Assembly: GCA_003327455.1 (NCBI GenBank)
Contig: QOQU01000001.1
Location: 258,337-322,336 of the forward strand
DNA length: 64,000 nucleotides
Direction of reading: 5' to 3'
From: Anaerolineae bacterium
GTDB lineage: Bacteria > Chloroflexota > Anaerolineae > Anaerolineales > UBA4823
The notes below the pieces were generated by a model. That model did not search any database. It was not told where the DNA came from and saw only the letters and a list, made by a program, of their open reading frames with translations. The translations under genes and the position numbers were made by a program. Shown here in pieces: positions 10,946 to 42,750 of the stretch (position 1 is its first letter; every line of letters begins with the position of its first letter).

Positions 10946-11461
10946 ATGGACCTGCAAAGCTTTCGAGAATTCGTGCGCACGCATCCCCGCCCATTCGTCG
11001 TTGACGTTTGGGCGGGCTGGTGCATGCCCTGTCGGGCGATGGAGCCTGCCCTTAAGCGGGTCGAACAGCAGTTCGCCGGGCAGGTTGATCTGCTGCGCCT
11101 GGACGCCGACCAATCCTCAGAAGTGCTCTCGGCGTTACGCGTTTATGGGATTCCCACCCTGCTCGCCTATCACGGAGGTCAGGAGGTCGCCCGTCAAACT
11201 GGCGCCCAGAGTGAGGCCGGGATTCGCCGCCTGTTTGAAGCCGCCCTGGTCGGGCAGGTCTCAGGTCCAGCCCCCCTCAGCCCGGTCGAACGCACCGTGC
11301 GCCTGGTGGCTGGAATTGGTTTGATTGGGCTGGGGCTCACCCAGAGCAGCGGGTGGATCTGGATCGGGTTGGGTGCGCTGGTGAGCTTTACGGCTGTCTA
11401 TGATCGCTGCCCGATCTGGCGCGCCGTGACGGGCTGGCTCAAACGCCGCCTGGCGAATTGA
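10946..11461 (+). CDS. Thioredoxin-domain protein fused to a C-terminal DUF2892 membrane domain
   Basis: WAGWCMPC active-site motif plus GIPT cis-Pro loop; C-terminal RLVAGIGLIGLG..AVYDRCPIWRAV DUF2892 pattern. The ATG directly abuts the upstream stop. Confidence 0.75.
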   Translation: MDLQSFREFVRTHPRPFVVDVWAGWCMPCRAMEPALKRVEQQFAGQVDLLRLDADQSSEVLSALRVYGIPTLLAYHGGQEVARQTGAQSEAGIRRLFEAALVGQVSGPAPLSPVERTVRLVAGIGLIGLGLTQSSGWIWIGLGALVSFTAVYDRCPIWRAVTGWLKRRLAN

Positions 11462-21850: not shown

Positions 21851-22579
21851 TCAACAGCCAGCTTTTTCAGCCACAATGATCACATTCGGCGAAAAGCGTT
21901 CGAGGGGTTTCTGATCAAAGCTGCCGAAGGTCGCTTGAATGCGAAAGCCAGCGTGCTCGAATTCGCCGAGCAGGAGGCTTACATCCTCCAGCGCATACTT
22001 CTGGCGATAGACGAAGCGCTGCACTTCGCCGTTGGGAAATAGTTGATCGTATCTCCACTCCACCTCGAGCCAGCCTGACTGGCGCTGCCAGGTGGTCAGG
22101 ACCTGGACCGGGTTATCGGACTGCGGATGGAGAAAAATCTCTTCCAGTTCGGCTTCCACCTTCGGTGGCAGAGTCTGGAGCAGGGCAGGGTTTGGGAAGC
22201 TCACCCCGAAGGCGCCTCCGATTTGCAAGCTCTGCCAGACATTGCTCAAAATTGCCCGGCGTTGTGGAGCGTCAAAGGTGGAATAGGTATTACAGGGCAA
22301 CAGCGCGAGCCGAAAGCCAGAAGCAAGCCCCAGGTGTCTCATATCGGCACAAAAAACATTTGCCGCCCCGCGCTGCTGCAGATAGCGCAGCATACTCAAA
22401 TCCAGATCGAAGCCAAATACCCGCAAGCCGCTATTCTGTAACGCATGATAGACTCGCCCGGTGCCGCAACCCATCTCCAGGACAGGTTCACCATAACGGC
22501 GAGCCAGTTCGAGGAAAAAGGGTATATCCTCGCTATAGCTGGCGTGATGGGCATGAAATAAGGGTGGAAAGCGATTCAC
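21851..22579 (-). CDS. Class I SAM-dependent methyltransferase
   Basis: Motif I VLEMGCGTGRV, motif II VFGFDLD. Confidence 0.8.
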   Translation of the reverse strand: MNRFPPLFHAHHASYSEDIPFFLELARRYGEPVLEMGCGTGRVYHALQNSGLRVFGFDLDLSMLRYLQQRGAANVFCADMRHLGLASGFRLALLPCNTYSTFDAPQRRAILSNVWQSLQIGGAFGVSFPNPALLQTLPPKVEAELEEIFLHPQSDNPVQVLTTWQRQSGWLEVEWRYDQLFPNGEVQRFVYRQKYALEDVSLLLGEFEHAGFRIQATFGSFDQKPLERFSPNVIIVAEKAGC

Positions 22580-22637: not shown

Positions 22638-22714
22638 CGGGGTGTGGCGCAGTACGGTAGCGCACCGCGTTTGGGACGCGGGGGTCGGCGGTTCAAGTCC
22701 GCCCGCCCCGACCT
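22638..22714 (+). tRNA. tRNA-Pro (anticodon TGG)
   Basis: Hand-folded cloverleaf: acceptor CGGGGTG/CGCCCCG, D stem GCGC/GCGC, anticodon stem CCGCG/CGCGG with loop TTTGGGA, T stem GGCGG/CCGCC. Confidence 0.9.
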
Positions 22715-23050
22715 TCGCAGTGGATTAACTAACTTGATAAGGTCGTTACTCGCTTATATTGTCACGCAAGCAACCCGAAAAAGCCGAAAGCAAGCGGAGC
22801 GGAACGCAGTGGAGCGGAGCGCAGCTTTCGGCTCAGGGTTGCTTGCGTAGGTTCGGGTGGGTGGGGGTTTGGGATGGTTTCAATCCGCGCGGGAGGCACT
22901 TCTTACCTGACACGCTCCTAACCTATCACCTGGAGAAGCGCGGTCGCGTTTTGCCAATTTTCCCCCCAGGAAAATTGAGCAAAACGGTTCATTGAATCTA
23001 TTCGACATTCTTCAACCGGATGAAAGCAATTCATCCTATACACTCTTTCT

Positions 23051-23222
23051 CTCCACAACCAGGCTAAGGCTTTCTCTCTCTGCCGGCGTTCCATCTCTGA
23101 CCTGGTTATAGCTTTCTCTCTATGCCGGCAATTCATCCACAACCTGGCCAAGTATTTCTTTCTACAACCTGGCTAAGGCTTTCTTTCTACAACCTGGCTC
23201 TGGCTTTCTTTCTCTGCCGGCG
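23051..23222. repeat. About 5 imperfect tandem repeats, core ACAACCTGGCTAAGGCTTTCT(C/T)TCT(CTGCCGGCG)
   Basis: Read directly. A related CTGCCGGCG(a/t)TCCATCTCTGACCTGG(c/t)TAT(a)GCTTC block recurs at 24894-24930 on the other side of the gene module. Confidence 0.75.
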
Positions 23223-23337
23223 GTATATCTCTCTCAGTTGTATAAGCGGTACGGGTTTATAAGGGGAAGGTTGGTTTGATGAGTAGATGAGATCGGGGTA
23301 TTGGTTGGCGGTTCGATGCGCAGACGTTCCACAGTTG

Positions 23338-23511
23338 TTAGCTGTCCGAATCCTGGTTGTTTTGGTTTTCTTCTGATTCTTTGTCTAAATCAATTCGAAA
23401 CAAAGGATAATGATTCTCTGGATAGGGATTAGCAAGGGAGATTAGGGCAAGGATGAATAGAAGGATGATGAAAGTTTTCAGGAAGCAGGTTAATTCAAGG
23501 ATATCTAGCAT
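23338..23511 (-). CDS. 57-aa small membrane protein (hand-called; MLDILELTCFLKTFIILLFILALISLANPY...)
   Basis: The ATG overlaps the upstream stop (AAATGCTAG); one TM helix. Last gene of the island module. Confidence 0.45.
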   Translation of the reverse strand: MLDILELTCFLKTFIILLFILALISLANPYPENHYPLFRIDLDKESEENQNNQDSDS

Positions 23512-23711
23512 TTGGGTTTCCTGATGGGGTTTTTCGATGGTTGAAGTTGGTTCAGGATTTCTTTGATTTGCTCCAGGCGTTCGGTGATTTTATTCAGGGC
23601 TTCAAGGTGCTTTTCGTCTTTGATTTCCTGGCGTTTCATGAGTTCGAGGGTGTACCAGATGAAGATGGCCAGGAGGGGGAATTGGATGAAGACAGGTAAA
23701 AGGTCTTGCAT
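23505..23711 (-). CDS. 68-aa N-terminal TM plus coiled-coil protein
   Basis: LPVFIQFPLLAIFIWYTL TM followed by a charged helix. Tightly packed in the module. Confidence 0.5.
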   Translation of the reverse strand: MQDLLPVFIQFPLLAIFIWYTLELMKRQEIKDEKHLEALNKITERLEQIKEILNQLQPSKNPIRKPKC

Positions 23712-23715
23712 GGGT

Positions 23716-24093
23716 TTATTCCTGGTCGGTAAGGGTTGATGCGTTTTGGGTTAGTTCATGGGTGAGTTCTTTCAGGATGTTGGTGAGGGGGTTTTGTTCT
23801 TCTCGCCGGCGAGTTTCGATGATGGATTGGGTGTTGTAGATGCGGGCGATCGAAAGGGTTATTTTCAGCATGGTGTCGATGTAGGTTAAAAGGGTTTCCT
23901 GGCTGATATTGGATGATTTCAGTTCTGCCATGATTCTTCTCCCGATTACTCTAAGGGCGTTTATTTCGGATTTTAGGGTTTCATCCAGGTTGTCAAGGTC
24001 GGCTCTTTCCAGTTGTCTAAATGCGCGGGCATAATAGCCATGTTTGAGGGCATTTAAGTTTCCTCTCGGCGCGCCTCTGTGTTTGTGATCCAT
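23716..24093 (-). CDS. 125-aa protein with an N-terminal GAPRGNLNALKHGYY motif, unknown function
   Basis: I associate the GAPxGNxNAxKHG motif with small phage/plasmid-borne proteins. This rests on memory only, with no homology search. Confidence 0.45.
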   Translation of the reverse strand: MDHKHRGAPRGNLNALKHGYYARAFRQLERADLDNLDETLKSEINALRVIGRRIMAELKSSNISQETLLTYIDTMLKITLSIARIYNTQSIIETRRREEQNPLTNILKELTHELTQNASTLTDQE

Positions 24094-24290
24094 AGGATTC
24101 TGGCTTTTTGATTGATATTGCGAAGGTGCAGGCGAACGGTTTGGGGTGATAGGTTTAGTTCTTGGGATATTTCTTTTTTCGATTTGCCGGCATTGCGCAG
24201 GTCGTTGATGATGCGTTCGGTATGGGTGAGGATGGGGATATTGTTACCGGTGAGATAATACCTGGTTTGATTGGTGATGATGATCCGCAT
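24054..24290 (-). CDS. 78-aa LuxR/sigma70-region-4-type HTH protein
   Basis: SKKEISQELNLSPQTVRLHLRNINQK helix-turn-helix. Confidence 0.55.
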   Translation of the reverse strand: MRIIITNQTRYYLTGNNIPILTHTERIINDLRNAGKSKKEISQELNLSPQTVRLHLRNINQKARILWITNTEARREET

Positions 24291-24474
24291 GGCTTGTTTT
24301 GGTTGATTGAAGTTTTTCCAGAATGGGGCGGGGGATAGGTTGATTGTTGAGCAGGCATTTGAGAAATAGACGGTATTCTTTATCGTTCAGGTTTTCGATG
24401 GCGGAGGTTGAGAAGGTGTAATGGGTTCCGTCCTGGTAGATGGTGCAGGTCATATGGGGGATGGTGGTTGTCAT
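24244..24474 (-). CDS. 76-aa hypothetical protein (start moved to MTTTIPH, 2 nt after the upstream stop)
   Basis: ORF packed as TAAGCATG after the Zn-ribbon gene; no recognisable motif. Confidence 0.4.
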   Translation of the reverse strand: MTTTIPHMTCTIYQDGTHYTFSTSAIENLNDKEYRLFLKCLLNNQPIPRPILEKLQSTKTSHADHHHQSNQVLSHR

Positions 24475-24476
24475 GC

Positions 24477-24734
24477 TTAGATTCCGAGTTTGTAGTTCAG
24501 TTCTTCTTGGAAGCAATCGTGGCAAAGGGGGAGTTCGACTTTGTAGGCGCCATCTTCACCGACGCTGGTTTCGAGGATGATAACGGCTTTGTTTCCGCAT
24601 TGGCAGTTTAGTTGTCTTCTTTTATAGGCGGGGTCGTTGCGGTGGCAGGGCAGGCATACGCCTAAGCCGTTGCCTTCTCCCAGGTAGGGAAGGTTGCAGA
24701 TTTTACAATTTGGTTTGATGCGGATGTTGGGCAT
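24477..24734 (-). CDS. 85-aa Cys-rich zinc-ribbon protein (island copy); paralog of 41206-41505
   Basis: CKIC..CLPC..CQC..CHDC; alignable with CRSC..CLAC..CAC..CEQC of the 41206 gene, including shared LPYL and VE(L/I)PLC blocks. Confidence 0.65.
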   Translation of the reverse strand: MPNIRIKPNCKICNLPYLGEGNGLGVCLPCHRNDPAYKRRQLNCQCGNKAVIILETSVGEDGAYKVELPLCHDCFQEELNYKLGI

Positions 24735-24747
24735 GTTTCCTCTCCAA

Positions 24748-24796
24748 ATAGAACGTTTGTTCTATTTATTTTAGAGAAGTTTTACTTAAATGTCAA
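24748..24796 (-). promoter_or_regulatory. Island module promoter (TTGACA 24791-24796, 17-nt spacer, TAAAAT 24768-24773) with a Cheo-type LexA box ATAGAACGTTTGTTCTAT (24748-24765) over the predicted start site
   Basis: Read directly; perfect GAAC-N4-GTTC core. Confidence 0.65.
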
Positions 24797-24947
24797 TCGG
24801 GGAATTGGCTTGCGAATGGGGCGAATTCATGCTAAGATAAGGTATCTTTCCCTCCCAAGCCTCTGATGGTTGTAAGCCATCAGGGGCTTATGTTTGCCGG
24901 CGATCCATCTCTGACCTGGCTATGGCTTCAGGTTATTAATTGAGGTG

Positions 24948-24956
24948 TGTTATAAT
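24948..24956 (+). promoter_or_regulatory. Extended -10 promoter candidate (TGTTATAAT) firing rightward into the 35-bp repeat array
   Basis: TGnTATAAT read directly; no good -35. Confidence 0.35.
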
Positions 24957-25000
24957 ACAGGTGGCTTCTCTCTATGCCCTTGATGGTTGCCATCCCATCG

Positions 25001-25187
25001 GGGGCATTTTCAATCTAACGACAATTTACCCACCGTGGGCATTTTCAATCTAACGACAATTTACCCAGCTGGGGCATTTTCAATCTAACGACAATTTACC
25101 CAGCTGGGGCATTTTCAATCTAACGACAATTTACCCACCGGTGGCATTTTCAATCTAACGACAATTTTCCCACAGGGAAAATTGTCG
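25001..25187. repeat. Five exact-period 35-bp tandem repeats (GGCATTTTCAATCTAACGACAATTTACCCA + 5 variable nt) ending in a 13-bp perfect hairpin CGACAATTTTCCC-aca-GGGAAAATTGTCG
   Basis: Unit starts at 25004, 25039, 25074, 25109 and 25144. Hairpin 25159-25187 followed by GTTCATTTTA. Confidence 0.9.
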
Positions 25188-25708
25188 GTTCATTTTAGAT
25201 AAAAACGCCCCAACCTTGCCCAAGCCGAACACGAAGTCGGATAAAGAGGTTATTTTAGCTTTTCTTATCTGAGTGGTTTTTTCAACCTTGCCCAAGCTAC
25301 GGCTGGGCAAGGCGTAAGTTTTGCCCCTAATCCCCCTATCCCGCCCCCCCATGTTAGACTTTCCTTGCTGGGGTGTGGGGGTTGGGTGGGGGGGCTTGGG
25401 GGGGCGGGAGGGGGAGGGGCAAAATTGGGGCGTGGTTCATTCTTCCAGGGGGTTTGTCAGGTGGGAAGGGGCTAGTTTTCCAGGTGAGGGCGGTCGTTCG
25501 GTTCGCATGGCTGAGCAAACGGACTATAACCCGGTCGTGTCAGGCGTTTTTGTTCAAGGGGCTATTGCATGACCTGATAACCTTTGCATTAAGTGCCTCT
25601 GTGTTTGCGCCAGCAGGTTTTGCCTGGGCATTTTCAGGCGTGGGCTGGGCGGCGCGGTTTCTTTTCCTTGTTTCTACGCCGGCGGTTGTTGAAAACGATT
25701 ATCATTAT

Positions 25709-25993
25709 CAGGAAGAGAAAGAATAAAATTGTAAAGTCCATGTCGCACGTCATGAAAACGAATTTCATTATCAATATCTTTATTCGGAGACAAGCTTCAT
25801 TTAACTTGTTTCTGCTCGAAGCCAAATACGCGCAAGCCGCTATTCTGTAACGCATGATAGACTCGCCCGGTGCCGCAACCCATCTCCGAACGTTTTTTCC
25901 GTCATTGTTCGCTTCATTTAACTTGTTTTCATCCCGGCTTTAGGACGCGGGGGTCGGCGGTTCAAGTCCGCCCGCAACTCACGCAAGCAACCC
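25709..25993. other. Collinear micro-copy of the upstream chromosome: four short blocks identical to 20944-20979, 22407-22478, 22674-22706 and 22762-22776
   Basis: Blocks at 25709-25744 (36/36), 25816-25887 (71/72), 25943-25975 (33/33) and 25979-25993 (15/15), same order and orientation. The linkers contain GCTTCATTTAACTTGTTT twice. Confidence 0.85.
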
Positions 25994-26100: not shown

Positions 26101-26220
26101 TTGCTTGCTCAATGTCTGGCTACGATTCGGTCCGCGGTGAATGCTTGCTCAATGTCGATCTACGATTCGGTTCTCGGTGAATGCTTGCTCGGTGTCGATC
26201 TACGATTCGGTTCTCGGTGG
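26101..26220. repeat. 3 x 40-bp tandem repeat (TGCTTGCTCAATGTCGATCTACGATTCGGTTCTCGGTGAA)
   Basis: Copies start at 26101, 26141 and 26181. Confidence 0.85.
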
Positions 26221-26431
26221 TTGTTTAATTGGTGTGGCTTAACAAGAATAAAAGCGAATCCGGGTTTGGGTTAGTGGGGGAATGGCGGTTCAAGTCCGCC
26301 CGCCCCGACCTTCTGGGGGCATAAAACGATCGGTTGCGAAAGTGCGACTCCCATTTATTGTGTTTTTACTGCAAAAGCCTTAAATGGGCTGCTCCCCTTG
26401 CCCACCGAAACACCCAAACGCCTATGTCCTT

Positions 26432-26790
26432 ATCCCTCACCCTGACCCTCTCCCTGAGGGAGAGGGAACCTGACTCCCCTCGCCCATTGGGAGAGGGGTT
26501 GGAGGTGAGGGCATTCTCCAATCCCTCACCCTGGCCTTCTCCCTGAGGGATAGAGAACTTGACTCCCCTCGCCCATTGGGAGAGGGGTTGGAGGTGAGGG
26601 CATTTTCCAATCCCTCACCCTGGCCTTCTCCCTGAGGGAGAGAGAACTCAACTCCCCTCGCCCATTGGGAGAGGGGTTGGAGGTGAGGGCATTTTCCAAT
26701 CCCTCACCCTGGCCCTCTCCCTGAGGAATAGAGAACTTGACTCCCCTCGCCCATTGGGAGAGGGGTTGGAGGTGAGGGGGATAAGCCCTT
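26432..26790. repeat. 4 x 89-bp tandem array of the complete 'GEG' nested-palindrome unit
   Basis: Unit atCCCTCACCCtggCCCTCTCCCtgaGGGAGAGGGaac..CTCCCCTCGCCCattGGGAGAGGGGttGGAGGTGAGGGcatt. Copies start at 26432, 26521, 26610 and 26699. Confidence 0.9.
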
Positions 26791-38255: not shown

Positions 38256-38496
38256 GGAGGAAATGAGGAACGTTTTCCACCATAGCGTGCTTGGATAGGT
38301 GCCATCAATCCTCTCATGAATTTGCATGATAACAAAATCTTGGAAAATTATGGACGTCTAAGCCATCATTTCCTCACTTCTATCTTTTGCCTTCCTTACT
38401 ATCCCACCTCACCCTAAAAAAACAACCCACTAAATCTTTCAAAGGCGGGTTGGTTTTTATGCTATGATGAAAGCGTATGGTTGAGGAGGTTTGAGT

Positions 38497-41181
38497 ATGG
38501 AGATTGGTTTGGTCCGTCAGGTGGATATCGACCGCGAAATGCAGCAGGCGTATCTGGATTATGCCATGAGTGTGATCGTGGCGCGTGCTTTGCCCGACGC
38601 CCGCGATGGTTTGAAACCCGTCCAACGGCGTATTTTATACGCCATGCTGGAATTGGGCTTGCGGCCCGACAGCGCCTACAAGAAATCGGCGCGCATTGTC
38701 GGAGAGGTGCTGGGAAAATTCCATCCGCACGGCGATATGGCTGTTTATGAAGCCATGGCTCGCCTGGCGCAACCCTTTACGATGCGCGTTCCGCTGGTAG
38801 ATGGGCAGGGCAATTTTGGCAGTGTGGATGGCGATCCGCCAGCAGCCATGCGCTACACCGAGGCGCGGCTCACTGCCGCCGCCATGCAACTGCTTGCCGA
38901 CATTGACAAGGACACGGTCGATTTTGCGCCGAACTTTGACGATACCCTGCGTGAACCGACCGTTTTGCCGGCCGCTTTCCCCAATCTGCTGGTCAACGGG
39001 GCAACCGGGATCGCCGTAGGGATGTCCACCAGCATCCCACCTCACAACCTGGCAGAAGTAATCGACGCACTGCGCCATCTGCTGCTGAATTGGGAAAAGA
39101 TGGACGACATCACCATCGAGGACTTAATGCGGTTCATTCAAGGGCCTGATTTCCCCACCGGTGGCATCCTGCTGACCGCTGAGGGAGAGCACTCGCTTGC
39201 CAGCGCTTATGGGAGTGGACGCGGGCAGGTTGTCGTCCGCGCCCGGGCTCACCTGGAAGAAATGGAACGCGGTCGCAGCCGTATTATTGTCACAGAGTTA
39301 CCTTATACCGTCAACAAAGCAGCTCTGATCGAACGCATCGCCGAGCTGGTGCGCGAGGAAAAGCTGAGCGGCATCACGGATCTACGCGATGAATCCGACC
39401 AGCGCGGCATGCGCATTGTGATTGAGGTGGGCAAAAACGCTGACCCCGAACAGGTTTTGGGAGAGTTATATCGCCATACGCCCATGCAGTCAACCTTTAG
39501 CATGATCTTGCTGGCACTGGTGGACGGCGAACCCCGTTTGATGAGCCTCAAGCAAGTTTTGCGGGTTTACCTCGACCATCGCCTGACCGTCATCCGCAGG
39601 CGCAGCGAATATGAATTGCGGCGCGCCCGTGAGCGCGCTCATATCCTCGAAGGGTTGCGCGTGGCGTTAAAAAACCTGGATGAAGTCATTGAACTCATTC
39701 GCAAATCACCCGATGCAGAGACTGCTCGCGGGCGCTTGATGCGTCGGTTCAAATTGAGCGAACTGCAGGCGCAAGCGATTCTGGATATGCCCCTGCGCCG
39801 CCTGGCAGCCTTAGAGCGTAAAAAAATCGAACTGGAATATCAAGAATTGCTCAAGCGGATCAAAGAACTGGAAAGCCTGTTGAAATCGCCGCCCAAATTG
39901 CGCGCCCTGGCAGCTGAGGAACTGGCAGCCGTTAAAGACGCTTTTGCCGAGCGACGCCGCACCCAAATCGCCGCCAGCGCTACCCGGGGTGGCCCGCTTG
40001 CTCTGACAGTGACCGATCTTACCCCCCAGGAGGAAACCTGGATCAGCATCACCGCCCAGGGGTTGATCGCCCGCAGCGAATCCGGCAAACCGCCCCGCCT
40101 GAGCGGCAACGAAGCGCCAGCCTGGTTGCTTAAAGCTTCCAGTCGCGATACGATCTATCTGGTAGCGGAGAACGGCGAATGCGCTGCCATTGCCCTGCAC
40201 AGTCTGCCACCATGCACTCGCCCCGGCGAAGGTTTGCCTCTGGGAGATGTTTCTCCCTTGAAAGACCCGAACACTCTGGCCTGTCTGTTCGCCCTGCCAC
40301 CCAAAGGCGAACGCCCTGAAGGAGCTTATCTCCTGACCGTAACTCGGCAGGGCTACGTCAAGAAATCTGCTCTGGATGAAGTGATAGGACCAGCCGCCCA
40401 TCTCTTTCAACTGGCAAAAGTCAACCCAGGCGATCGCCTGGGTTGGGTTCACCTGACGCGTGGGGATCAGGAAATCCTGCTGGCGACGGCGCAGGGAATG
40501 GCAATCCGCTTTTCCGAGCAGAGCGTACGCCCGATGGGATTGGTGGCTGCTGGCGTGCTGGGGATTAAGTTGAGCGAGGCGGATGAAGTGATTGGCGCTG
40601 CAATCCTGCCCAAAGCTGGCGATGTCCTCCTGGTCGCCTCAGATGGGCGTGCGAAGCGTCTGGCAGTTGAGCAATTCCCCCTCCAGGGACGCTATGGGCA
40701 GGGGGTTCAGGCGTGGAAATTAAGCCCGACTTCCCGATTGGTCGGTATGGCGGTTGGCAAAGCCACCGCCCAAGCCACGCTTTTTTTGGAGAAACTTGCC
40801 CCGAAGAGCATCCGCTTTGACGAAGCCCCCCTGCAGACGCGCGCCGGGCGAGGCAAGGCAGTGCAGGAACTGAAACCCGGCGATCGGATTGTGCGCCTGG
40901 TGGTGGCATGGGAGAGCGGAGAGATGAAATCTGAACCGACCTCGGCGCGCACTAGCCGCGGCAGGGCGAAAAAAGCGTCCGGTCAACCACAGCAAGCCTC
41001 ACTTCCTGGGAAGAAAAGCCTGCCCCAGGAAGAACAGACCGATGCATCAACGATTGGGACAACACCCACTCGCCGAACGCGGCGTACAACCACGGATGCC
41101 GAGACGCCACCTCAATCATCTACCCCTGCCAGCCAGGCAAGGCGCACCCGCAAGAAGCCTTCACCCCCTGCCCAGGGTTGA
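38497..41181 (+). CDS. gyrA: DNA gyrase subunit A with a basic low-complexity C-terminal tail of about 90 aa
   Basis: [30 protein letters not shown], catalytic-Tyr region AAMRYTE, GyrA-box-containing CTD repeats. ATG at 38497 after GAGGAGG. Confidence 0.95.
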
Positions 41182-41205: not shown

Positions 41206-41505
41206 TCAAAAGTGGGAAGCTAATTTCTCAGCCCTCCGTTCCTCCTCAATAGCGGAGGAGCGAACTGATTGGCACTCCCAACTCTCCAATTCCAGCGCCA
41301 GGCATTGCTCACAAAGGGGAATTTCTACGGCGTATTCCCCGTTTAAACCGACCCGATCGAGCAAGACGGTTACGGCAATCTCGCCACAGGCACAACGTAG
41401 CCCAACCGGACTGCTACCTCGTAAGCAAGCCAGACAAAGACCATCTTTCCCGTTCAGGTAGGGCAGGTGACAGGAACGACAAGGGGCTTTAAGAGAAGCA
41501 GGCAT
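41206..41505 (-). CDS. 99-aa Cys-rich zinc-ribbon protein (chromosomal paralog of 24477-24734)
   Basis: CRSC..CLAC..CAC..CEQC; convergent with gyrA, 24 nt apart. Confidence 0.65.
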   Translation of the reverse strand: MPASLKAPCRSCHLPYLNGKDGLCLACLRGSSPVGLRCACGEIAVTVLLDRVGLNGEYAVEIPLCEQCLALELESWECQSVRSSAIEEERRAEKLASHF

Positions 41506-41541: not shown

Positions 41542-41581
41542 AGAACATACGTTCTATAAATAAGCGATTAAACAGGGTGAA
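41542..41581 (-). promoter_or_regulatory. Promoter (TTCACC 41576-41581, 17-nt spacer, TATAGA 41553-41558) overlapped by the Cheo-type LexA box AGAACATACGTTCT (41542-41555)
   Basis: Read directly; perfect GAAC-N4-GTTC core. Confidence 0.6.
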
Positions 41582-41595
41582 TTTTTGGCGAGTCT

Positions 41596-42750
41596 CTAGC
41601 CCGGAGGGGCAGGAAGCGGCGGCGGAGGTGGGAAAAGCCAGGCAAGCAACCTCCCCAAAGACCAGACCAGTGGAGGAAACCAGCCCTGCCCTGCCAGCCG
41701 ATAACAGACCTCGGCAGTGAACCAGCGTGTCATCAGATAACGTCCCAAATAGGATTTTCTCAACCGCCTGCGATAAGTGGAGAATGAGAAATCCTGACGT
41801 TCGAAGGCATCGATGATCGCCTGCGCCGCCAGTTGTCCATACGCCAGCGAGGGGGCAATGCCTTCGCCAAACAGGGGATCGACTCCAGCAACCTCGCCCA
41901 CCAGCAGCAGGCGCGGGTACGCAAAGCGATTGCGCGGACTAAACCAATGGATGGGGTGACTCTGCCATGCATCTCGCAGAGAGCCATACGCCTGAGAAAA
42001 CGCAGTTTCAAGAAACACCGGTAAGGGCGCAGGTGGCTTGCGCTGGTCCAGACGGGCATCGTAGAGACCACGGTTGAAGGCGGCTGTGCCGTTTTGGAAA
42101 AAGGGAAAATCCCATACGTAGCCCTGCAACCCCTCTTTGAGTAAACTGAAATCAAACAGGGTGGCGGCGCTCTGAAAGAGTTCTGCCGATGGACGAGCGG
42201 GTTGGACGACCTCCAGGGTGCGGGCAAGGCGGGCTTTGGCAGTACGGCGGCGCGTCCAGCGGCGGGTAATTCCGTTGGCACCGTCCGCTCCCACCACCAC
42301 TGTAGCAGAATATTCTCTCTCTGGAGTGCGTAAGACCACCGTCTCGGGCAGAAAGATGATCTCTTTCACCTCCTTACCCTCTTCAATTTGGATTCCTCTG
42401 GCTCTGGTTTGTTGTGCAAGATAGGCATCCAGCTCTGCGCGGTTAAAAATCACCAGTTGGGGTTCTCCACATAGGGTGACCACCTGGCGCTGATACCTGA
42501 ACCGAACTTCTTTGACGGCAAATTGGGGTAAGGGCAAGGGGTAAGGAAAATCCAGTTCCTGTAAGATGCGAAATCCCAGGCGGGTCACCGCGCCGCCGCA
42601 TAATTTGAAGCGCGGATAACACTCTTTTTCCAGCACCAGCACTCGTTTGCTCCACTGCGGCGAATAGCGCAGCAAATGTAAGGCGGTCGAAAGCCCACCT
42701 GGTCCGCCGCCGATAATGATCACATCATAATGCGCCTGGGCGCTCATCAT
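41596..42750 (-). CDS. FAD-dependent oxidoreductase, geranylgeranyl-reductase-like
   Basis: YDVIIIGGGPGGLSTA dinucleotide fingerprint, GADGANG motif, length about 380 aa. Confidence 0.6.
   Translation of the reverse strand: MMSAQAHYDVIIIGGGPGGLSTALHLLRYSPQWSKRVLVLEKECYPRFKLCGGAVTRLGFRILQELDFPYPLPLPQFAVKEVRFRYQRQVVTLCGEPQLVIFNRAELDAYLAQQTRARGIQIEEGKEVKEIIFLPETVVLRTPEREYSATVVVGADGANGITRRWTRRRTAKARLARTLEVVQPARPSAELFQSAATLFDFSLLKEGLQGYVWDFPFFQNGTAAFNRGLYDARLDQRKPPAPLPVFLETAFSQAYGSLRDAWQSHPIHWFSPRNRFAYPRLLLVGEVAGVDPLFGEGIAPSLAYGQLAAQAIIDAFERQDFSFSTYRRRLRKSYLGRYLMTRWFTAEVCYRLAGQGWFPPLVWSLGRLLAWLFPPPPPLPAPPG

Follow-up and report, generated by a model that had tools for sequence, protein, structure and literature searches.

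A predicted LexA operator precedes two paralogous Zn-ribbon genes, one of them on a small tRNA-Pro island, in an Anaerolineae genome

The DNA analysed here is a stretch of 64,000 nucleotides (64 kb) from contig QOQU01000001.1 of an Anaerolineae bacterium (assembly GCA_003327455.1). We refer to it as the window, and all coordinates are those of the window. Our subject is the regulatory region of a minus-strand operon, running from 24734 to 23338, on a small island beside a tRNA-Pro gene. The first gene of the operon (24477–24734, minus strand) encodes an 85-amino-acid Zn-ribbon protein with eight invariant Cys residues. A σ70-type promoter lies upstream (24768–24796, minus strand). Its −35 element, TTGACA (24796–24791), and its −10 element, TAAAAT (24773–24768), are separated by a 17-nt spacer. 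With 11 of 12 consensus matches, this is the top promoter-like site between positions 23000 and 25300. On the minus strand, the −10 element is followed by AAAT, the box AGAACAAACGTTCT, ATTT, GGAGAGG, AAAC and the ATG at 24734. The box (24750–24763, minus strand) reads AGAACGTTTGTTCT, or AGAACAAACGTTCT on the gene strand (24763–24750), and is a predicted LexA operator of the type known as a Cheo or SOS box. It is the core of a perfect 18-nt palindrome (24748–24765). The box begins only 4 nt past the −10 element, and the expected transcription start is therefore covered. The distance from the palindrome to the ATG is 13 nt. Within it, the Shine–Dalgarno-like GGAGAGG (24739–24745, minus strand), read from the sequence, is separated from the ATG by a 4-nt gap (24735–24738). 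A first-pass annotation of this DNA had described a perfect GAAC-N4-GTTC palindrome at 24748–24765, directly downstream of the TTGACA-17-TAAAAT promoter and 13 nt before the first ATG. Rereading the sequence bore out each of these points.

A second predicted LexA operator is found at 41542–41555 (minus strand; AGAACATACGTTCT, or ATAGAACGTATGTTCTGC on the gene strand). It is positioned 36 nt before the ATG of a monocistronic chromosomal gene (41206–41505, minus strand) that encodes a 99-amino-acid paralogue of the island protein. The two Zn-ribbon proteins share 43% identity (E 3e-16). A −10-like TAAGAT (41539–41534) abuts the 3' side of the chromosomal box. The 16 nt ATAGAACGTATGTTCT at this gene are, letter for letter, the commonest lexA operator of Anaerolineae.

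Exact GAAC-N4-GTTC cores occur at 24751–24762, on the island, and at 41543–41554, at the chromosomal paralogue. The first-pass annotation had counted these two and had correctly placed the latter before the paralogous Zn-ribbon gene. The total for the window is, however, three. The additional site, CGAACAGCAGTTCG at 11063–11074, is within a thioredoxin open reading frame (ORF; 10946–11461). Three sites compare with 0.84 expected, and 3 of 100 shuffled sequences reach this number; the count of the bare 8-base core is thus weakly surprising. Conversely, the extended 14-mer AGAAC-N4-GTTCT occurs twice against an expectation of 0.00 (100 shuffles), and both copies precede the two paralogous Zn-ribbon genes. 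We also scored the window with a weight matrix derived from 12 Anaerolineae-class lexA operators. The two sites scored 25.6 and 23.5 bits, within the range of the training sites (18.5–26.1 bits), while the next best site in the window scored 7.1. The site in the thioredoxin ORF was not among the 12 best. The window also encodes metH, a metF fusion, crtI, gyrA and a geranylgeranyl-reductase-like gene, and no SOS genes were found among the genes that it encodes.

The lexA and recA promoters of the class were examined in other genomes. Species-representative genomes were scanned for AGAAC-N4-GTTCT followed, 71–131 nt on, by codons for the LexA motif PP[ST]xREI. At least 120 loci were recovered. 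Among the 120 listed, 117 encode LexA according to tblastn, and 97 carry Chloroflexota names. The latter span Limnocylindria, Chloroflexia, Ktedonobacterales, Dehalococcoidia, Anaerolineae or Anaerolineales, and Thermoflexales. All ten Anaerolineae-class lexA promoters among the listed loci have the form cTTGACA-[T/C]-AGAAC-N4-GTTCT-NN-TATAAT, so that the box occupies the 17-nt spacer of a consensus promoter. The sequence ATAGAAC-N4-GTTCT is present within the lexA promoter spacer in Anaerolineae, Anaerolineales and Thermoflexales. As an unconditioned check, we took two proteins (P0283 and P0271) from a LexA profile search, with no knowledge of their promoters. Both lexA promoters contain TTGACATAGAACGT[A/G]TGTTCGTGTATAAT. 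A search with the B. subtilis LexA protein returned Bacillus proteins only and no Anaerolineae lexA. At four loci (L016, L018, L049 and L077) recA adjoins lexA; the N-terminus of the encoded RecA matches TIGR02012 (8e-25). Each of these recA genes has its own AGAAC-N4-GTTCT, 12 nt after a TTGACG-17-TATGAT promoter, and a box at recA was not demanded by the scan. The geometry, with the box after the −10 element, is common to the recA promoters and the island promoter.

At several of the Anaerolineae-class loci (among L016, L018, L049, L077, L126 and L132–L141) lexA is followed by an FtsK/SpoIIIE-like gene. In L126 (3900–3960), the promoter spacer of this gene holds a box, and a second box comes after the −10 element. 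This arrangement suggests that the gene is SOS-regulated.

The box is conserved at Zn-ribbon genes. A perfect copy is found in 10 of 13 lineages of the family, with constrained arms and a free spacer. It is present in five lineages of chromosomal orthologues, in all four island copies (the window, L142, L143 and L149) and in one of two distant members (P0016). Among the five chromosomal lineages, the central N4 varies (GTAT, ATTT, ATAA, ATAT, ATTC or AAAT) between invariant arms, and the box is always followed by an extended −10 element, TG-N-TAnnAT. The distant protein P0016 has 39% identity and different genomic neighbours, and its gene has a perfect box inside an 18-nt promoter spacer. Upstream of P0004, in L001 and L002 (GCA_003130835.1), the left arm of the box is lost (GACATCGAGGTTCTG) and the −10 region is kept, making this a natural operator-loss variant.

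Relatives of the island were L142 and L143, both from a scan of metagenomes, and L149, which encodes P0012. In all three, the Zn-ribbon gene is preceded by AGAACAA[A/C]CGTTCT. The layout in L149 is that of the window, with TTGACA-17-TAAAAT and then the box. In blastn comparisons of the window island with L142 and L143, the sole promoter-proximal noncoding block shared was one of 23–24 nt that contains the box. This block is 92–96% identical, compared to 65–67% for the adjoining Zn-ribbon coding sequence.

Taken together, these data make it very likely that the palindrome is an operator of host LexA, of the GAAC-N4-GTTC type. This is how the first-pass annotation had read it, and the first check that it named was whether the motif recurs at SOS promoters of the genome, such as those of lexA and recA. 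At the level of the class it does, as seen at ten conditioned and two unconditioned lexA genes and at four recA genes, and the footprints at chromosomal and island Zn-ribbon genes also favour that reading. With the box positioned 4 nt after the −10 element of a near-consensus σ70 promoter, LexA bound there as a dimer would lie across the transcription start, blocking RNA polymerase. DNA damage would lead to RecA-stimulated self-cleavage of LexA, which would free the promoter. The packed operon, from 24734 to 23338 on the minus strand, would then be turned on. Its predicted products are an eight-Cys double Zn-ribbon, a 76-amino-acid protein, a LuxR-type helix-turn-helix (HTH) protein, a TerS-like protein and one or two small hydrophobic proteins. 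The operon would be the cargo of an integrase-less island of ~3.2 kb inserted at tRNA-Pro. The same operator is predicted to control the chromosomal paralogue. Hence, the Zn-ribbon family would be a member of the SOS regulon in these Anaerolineae, of which the island carries a copy together with its switch. The motif, where it lies, how it is conserved and its identity with lexA and recA operators of the class are all seen in the sequences; from these we infer LexA binding, repression, operon-wide induction and any mobility or satellite role of the island.

Several observations weigh against this interpretation. Three of the 13 lineages have no intact box: P0004, from the DDG59 genome, retains a half-site, and the chromosomal orthologue P0011 and the distant member P0017 have none. 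In L142 and L143, 35–46 nt are inserted between the box and the ATG, and this insertion holds a strong promoter, the best in each case (TTGACA-17-TATACT at 561–589 in L142, 11 of 12 matches; TTGACA-17-TAAACT at 1351–1379 in L143, 10 of 12). The insertion places the box upstream of the −35 element, and the relation of box to promoter is less clear there; the window copy and L149 lack it. The −10 element of the inserted promoter ends 9 nt before the ATG, a leaderless-like arrangement, and the spacer is a different palindrome, TTGAAAA-N3-TTTTCAA. In these two islands LexA may control only the upstream promoter, and so part of the transcription, and the second promoter may be under another regulator, perhaps the island HTH protein. 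Given that protein, LexA need not be the sole regulator. The first-pass annotation had proposed that the island senses host stress with no need for its own repressor. This is not established, since the operon encodes a LuxR/GerE-type HTH protein and L142 and L143 have the second promoter with its different palindrome. The link to lexA and recA rests on other genomes of the class; those genes of the present genome lie outside the window. The scan, with its minimum of 120 loci, was conditioned on the box. It therefore gives no fraction of lexA genes that bear one, and the blind sample comprises two lexA genes.

The Zn-ribbon family has the Cys pattern CxxC...CxxC plus CxC...CxxC. All eight of these Cys residues are invariant, and thus two Zn sites are predicted. 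The family is tiny: it accounts for only 35 clusters in a set of 1.84 billion representative proteins. Orthologues of the chromosomal gene are confined to metagenome-assembled genomes and metagenomes of Anaerolineae or Anaerolineales. In curated family libraries, including Pfam and NCBIfam, the family had no match beyond generic zinc-ribbon noise. An AlphaFold (AF2) model of the protein had a mean-confidence score (predicted local distance difference test, pLDDT) of 86, and a fold search with this model gave no significant match in PDB or BFVD. No relatives of the protein were found in viral contigs. At the chromosomal locus, gyrA (38491–41181) adjoins the Zn-ribbon gene. A function as a YacG-type gyrase inhibitor was considered and rejected; there was no Pfam or NCBIfam match and the downstream neighbour is not conserved. 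Depending on lineage, that neighbour is gyrA, a Mg-chelatase-like gene, a type I restriction subunit gene or a Bmp-family gene. On the other side, a geranylgeranyl-reductase-like flavin adenine dinucleotide (FAD) gene (41596–42750) precedes the Zn-ribbon gene on the same strand. The pairing of FAD and Zn-ribbon genes was seen in every locus with a Pfam-annotated upstream ORF (the window, L001–L008 and L145–L147).

The operon consists of six minus-strand ORFs, from 24734 to 23338, which overlap or are 2–4 nt apart. Gene 2 (24244–24474, minus strand) starts with an ATG 2 nt after the Zn-ribbon stop codon and encodes a protein of 76 amino acids with no family assignment. Counterparts of 74–83 amino acids occupy the same position in L142 and L143. 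Gene 3 (24054–24290, minus strand) encodes a 78-amino-acid protein with a LuxR/GerE-type HTH (Pfam GerE, E 5.5e-10) and is a candidate for an island-encoded regulator. In L142 and L143 its position is taken by ORFs of 84 amino acids. The product of gene 4 (23716–24093, minus strand; 125 amino acids) is TerS-like, with the motif GAPxGNxNAxKHG and a match to the TerS family phrog_1889 (3.7e-6). All three of three orthologues match this family, the best at 6.2e-8, with the match confined to ~60 residues of the 276-position profile. No match to the protein was found in PDB or in phage records. The TerS assignment, made from such profile matches, is moderately supported. Gene 5 (23505–23711, minus strand) encodes 68 amino acids, with an N-terminal hydrophobic segment and a charged, helix-like tail; Pfam hints are weak, and a 76-amino-acid counterpart is present in L142 and in L143. 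ORF 6 (23338–23511, minus strand) would encode a hydrophobic protein of 57 amino acids. No counterpart ORF is present in L142 or L143, and it is doubtful that ORF 6 is a real gene. The module contains no terminator-like hairpin, and promoter-like sites within it do not exceed 9 of 12 matches. SOS induction of the operon as a whole can soundly be expected.

The island is delimited by tRNA-Pro sequences. The tRNA-Pro(TGG) gene (22638–22713, plus strand) is the predicted integration site, and its 3' part (22665–22706) constitutes an attL-like direct repeat. A degenerate copy of this 3' part (93%; 25934–25975, plus strand) is attR-like and marks the right boundary. A further remnant of the tRNA-Pro 3' end lies at 26262–26303. 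The island thus extends from approximately 22714 to 25933, and GC content falls to 0.45–0.47 across 23–25 kb. The same five-gene module is present in L142 and L143, as are the att-proximal blocks. In L143, a tRNA-Pro(CGG) is found at the equivalent place relative to the module, with an att-like copy at the far end. In L142, ARAGORN finds no tRNA; there are tRNA-like 3' remnants only. The element thus measures about 2.7–3.2 kb, is tRNA-Pro-associated and is recurrent. Between 22714 and 25933, flanked by the att-like repeats, there is no integrase ORF or domain. Among the ORFs and domains of the island, no replication (rep or primase), structural or lysis gene was recognised. The features expected of a phage-inducible chromosomal island (PICI) include a master repressor and a replication module. 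Here there is a GerE-type HTH protein only, and no rep or primase gene. Hence, with the integrase, master repressor and replication module wanting, the island cannot be filed as a PICI. Searches for viral relatives gave none for the Zn-ribbon protein among viral contigs and none for the TerS-like protein among phage records. The island has neither an integrase nor structural genes, and its status as a satellite or prophage is therefore a conjecture.

The island is rich in repeats. Five head-to-tail units of 35 nt (CCCAnnnnGGGCATTTTCAATCTAACGACAATTTA, 92% matches) are found at 24994–25177, ~200 nt upstream of the island promoter. The array terminates in an inverted copy (25152–25194) and resembles an iteron or operator array. 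Upstream tandem arrays are likewise present in L142 and L143, with a sequence different from that of the 35-nt units in the window. The word TTTTCAAT was considered as a link between the 35-nt repeats and the downstream promoter of L142 and L143; the overlap is 8–9 nt only and the word is absent from L149, so that it is a tentative lead at most. Sequences similar to TTGAAAA-N3-TTTTCAA (TTGAAAACGATTATCAT and ATGAAAACGAATTTCAT) are located in the window at 25689–25705 and 25752–25768, at the far end of the island and not at the promoter. A hairpin of ~110 nt, with C-rich and G-rich arms (dG −76 kcal/mol, z −4.1), is present in the window (25316–25427), in L143 (1050–1146) and in L142 (about 240–340). 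It is ~80% identical in the three islands and better conserved than the coding genes. The hairpin might serve as a cis site (ori, pac or att-related), or it may instead be a structured RNA or a tract prone to G-quadruplexes. An Rfam scan of the island found tRNA only, plus spurious matches of microRNA models to the GC-rich hairpin. The 35-nt tandem repeats and the conserved hairpin could be cis sites of the island.

Other repeats lie at the margins. A 72-nt direct repeat (99% identity) is found at 22407–22478, upstream of tRNA-Pro in the 5' end of a methyltransferase-like ORF, and at 25816–25887, just inside the far boundary. It is not explained by integrase-type duplication of a tRNA 3' end, and suggests a more complex rearrangement or a history of tandem integration. 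Degenerate repeats of 25 and 42 nt occupy 23045–23232, in the gap that separates the tRNA gene from the end of the operon. A 34-nt copy of these (91%) is found at 24895–24928, ~100 nt upstream of the island promoter, and the operon is therefore bracketed by related repeats. Just outside the island are tandem arrays at 26102–26219 (3 × 40 nt) and 26432–26778 (3.9 × 89 nt, 94% matches); the 89-nt unit holds internal inverted repeats (CCCTCTCCCTGAGGGAGAGGG). Far from the island, TTTTCAA recurs with a 79-nt period (9083, 9162, 9241 and 9320), which hints at an unrelated tandem array.

Other explanations of the box are conceivable. It might be an operator for the Zn-ribbon protein itself, acting as an autorepressor, or for the island LuxR-type HTH protein, and not for LexA. 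Autorepression would explain a box at both paralogues, AGAAC-N4-GTTCT being confined in the window to the fronts of these two genes, and the association of family and box is strong (10 of 13 lineages). A GerE-type HTH protein is also encoded on the island. However, many Anaerolineae-class genomes have the same 14–16-mer, often letter for letter, in their lexA and recA promoters, at loci with no Zn-ribbon gene. The family, with its 35 clusters, is tiny compared to the spread of the motif at lexA in Chloroflexota, and the chromosomal paralogue has no HTH partner. We consider it very improbable that either protein is the cognate regulator. Alternatively, the box might regulate nothing at present. 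It would then be a palindrome that arose by chance in an AT-rich promoter, or a dead remnant that accompanied the gene when it was copied. A bare core count matched by 3 of 100 shuffles, with one of the three sites plainly coding, would fit with chance, and the half-site lost from the DDG59 lineage indicates that decay does occur. Conversely, the 14-mer is present twice where 0.00 copies are expected, both times at the promoters of paralogues. In orthologues the arms are invariant while the spacer varies. Among the islands, the block with the box is 92–96% identical, against ~66% for neighbouring coding DNA, and other promoter DNA cannot be aligned. Because of these statistics and this footprint, chance or relic status can be regarded as excluded, there being scarcely any probability left to it.

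A further alternative accepts the LexA operator and concerns the island. The element may be neither satellite nor prophage-like. It may be a decayed, cis-mobilisable remnant, or a fixed cassette for stress, lysis or toxin functions that is induced by SOS, in which case the TerS match would reflect a shared DNA-binding motif. Genes for an integrase, replication, structural proteins or lysis were not recognised, and the island has no relatives in viral contigs or phage records. The TerS match spans just ~60 of 276 profile positions, and two small hydrophobic proteins are encoded at the end of the operon. Set against this, at least three different metagenomes hold the five-gene module together with its flanks, with 47–60% protein identity for the two genes that were aligned and the other three matched by position only. 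The module is found beside tRNA-Pro genes of differing anticodon, TGG in the window and CGG in L143. The conservation of the module in several metagenomes, beside different tRNA-Pro genes, therefore speaks for an element that functions and moves, and against debris. Furthermore, TerS families are matched by all three orthologues, and LexA-controlled terS operons are a known trait of satellites. A remnant or fixed cassette is thus possible, though we think it rather unlikely.

Control of the island operon by host LexA would have several consequences. LexA of Dehalococcoides reportedly binds GAAC-N4-GTTC. The Chloroflexota LexA motif would thus extend from Dehalococcoides to Anaerolineae, with a clear architecture at lexA and recA promoters. 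A very rare eight-Cys family would join the SOS regulon and would be a candidate for an SOS task, for instance division control or regulation, for which we know of no player in Chloroflexota. The island would be an unusually small one with a LexA-switched, TerS-like operon, and possibly a first glimpse of satellite-like elements in Chloroflexota. To our knowledge, no such elements have been described in this phylum, and LexA-sensing mobile elements have, as far as we know, yet to be described in the bacterial group studied here. More speculatively, integrase-less tRNA-Pro islands of ~3 kb in thermophilic Anaerolineae may be a family of minimal phage satellites. These would have captured a host SOS Zn-ribbon gene with its LexA operator and would use host LexA as the switch for a TerS operon. 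The Zn-ribbon protein would then be an unrecognised SOS effector of Chloroflexota, with, for example, a checkpoint or regulatory role. We offer this as a tentative proposal, with the odds against it.

The eight-Cys protein invites comparison with Ogr/Delta of phages P2 and P4. Both are small and Cys-rich, bind Zn (a prediction in the present case) and occupy a regulatory position in a phage or satellite (for the island, a possible one). However, Ogr/Delta proteins have four Cys residues, whereas the Zn-ribbon family has eight and includes a monocistronic chromosomal paralogue that the host lineage conserves. Neither sequence nor fold comparison detected any similarity.

The box itself has a close parallel. 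GAAC-N4-GTTC is the LexA motif of B. subtilis and Gram-positive bacteria (PMC3323433). Chloroflexota have this operator type in common with the Gram-positives. The Anaerolineae box has the same palindromic core and spacing as this Cheo box, similarly overlaps core promoter elements and occurs at lexA and recA of the class. The flanks differ, being A/T here (ATAGAAC...GTTCT) and CGAAC...GTTCG in the Cheo consensus. The target genes here belong to the eight-Cys Zn-ribbon family, which is not known to be part of the SOS response.

Among mobile elements, the Staphylococcus aureus pathogenicity islands (SaPIs) offer both likeness and contrast. SaPIs are far larger than the island, with an integrase, the Stl master repressor, a replication module and capsid-remodelling genes. 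Conversely, in the 3.2-kb island no integrase, Stl-type repressor, replication gene or capsid-remodelling gene was recognised, the first gene of the operon is different and the host belongs to another phylum. The likeness concerns SaPI operon I, which comprises about six genes of a chromosomal island, is directly repressed by host LexA and includes a terS homologue (PMC3152322). The island described here likewise has an operon of about six genes, predicted LexA control and a TerS-like gene. Host LexA also serves coliphage 186 (tum), CTXphi (rstA), Bacillus phage GIL01 and the Gifsy phages (antirepressors). In each, as predicted for the island, a host LexA operator on a promoter of the element couples expression to DNA damage. 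These are complete phages with structural genes, several of which use an antirepressor or a phage partner; for the island no partner was identified. The borrowing of host LexA by mobile elements is, therefore, an already established principle. What appears to be new here, judging from the comparisons above, is an uncharacterised eight-Cys family of predicted SOS genes in Anaerolineae and a very small island that carries this gene together with its predicted switch.

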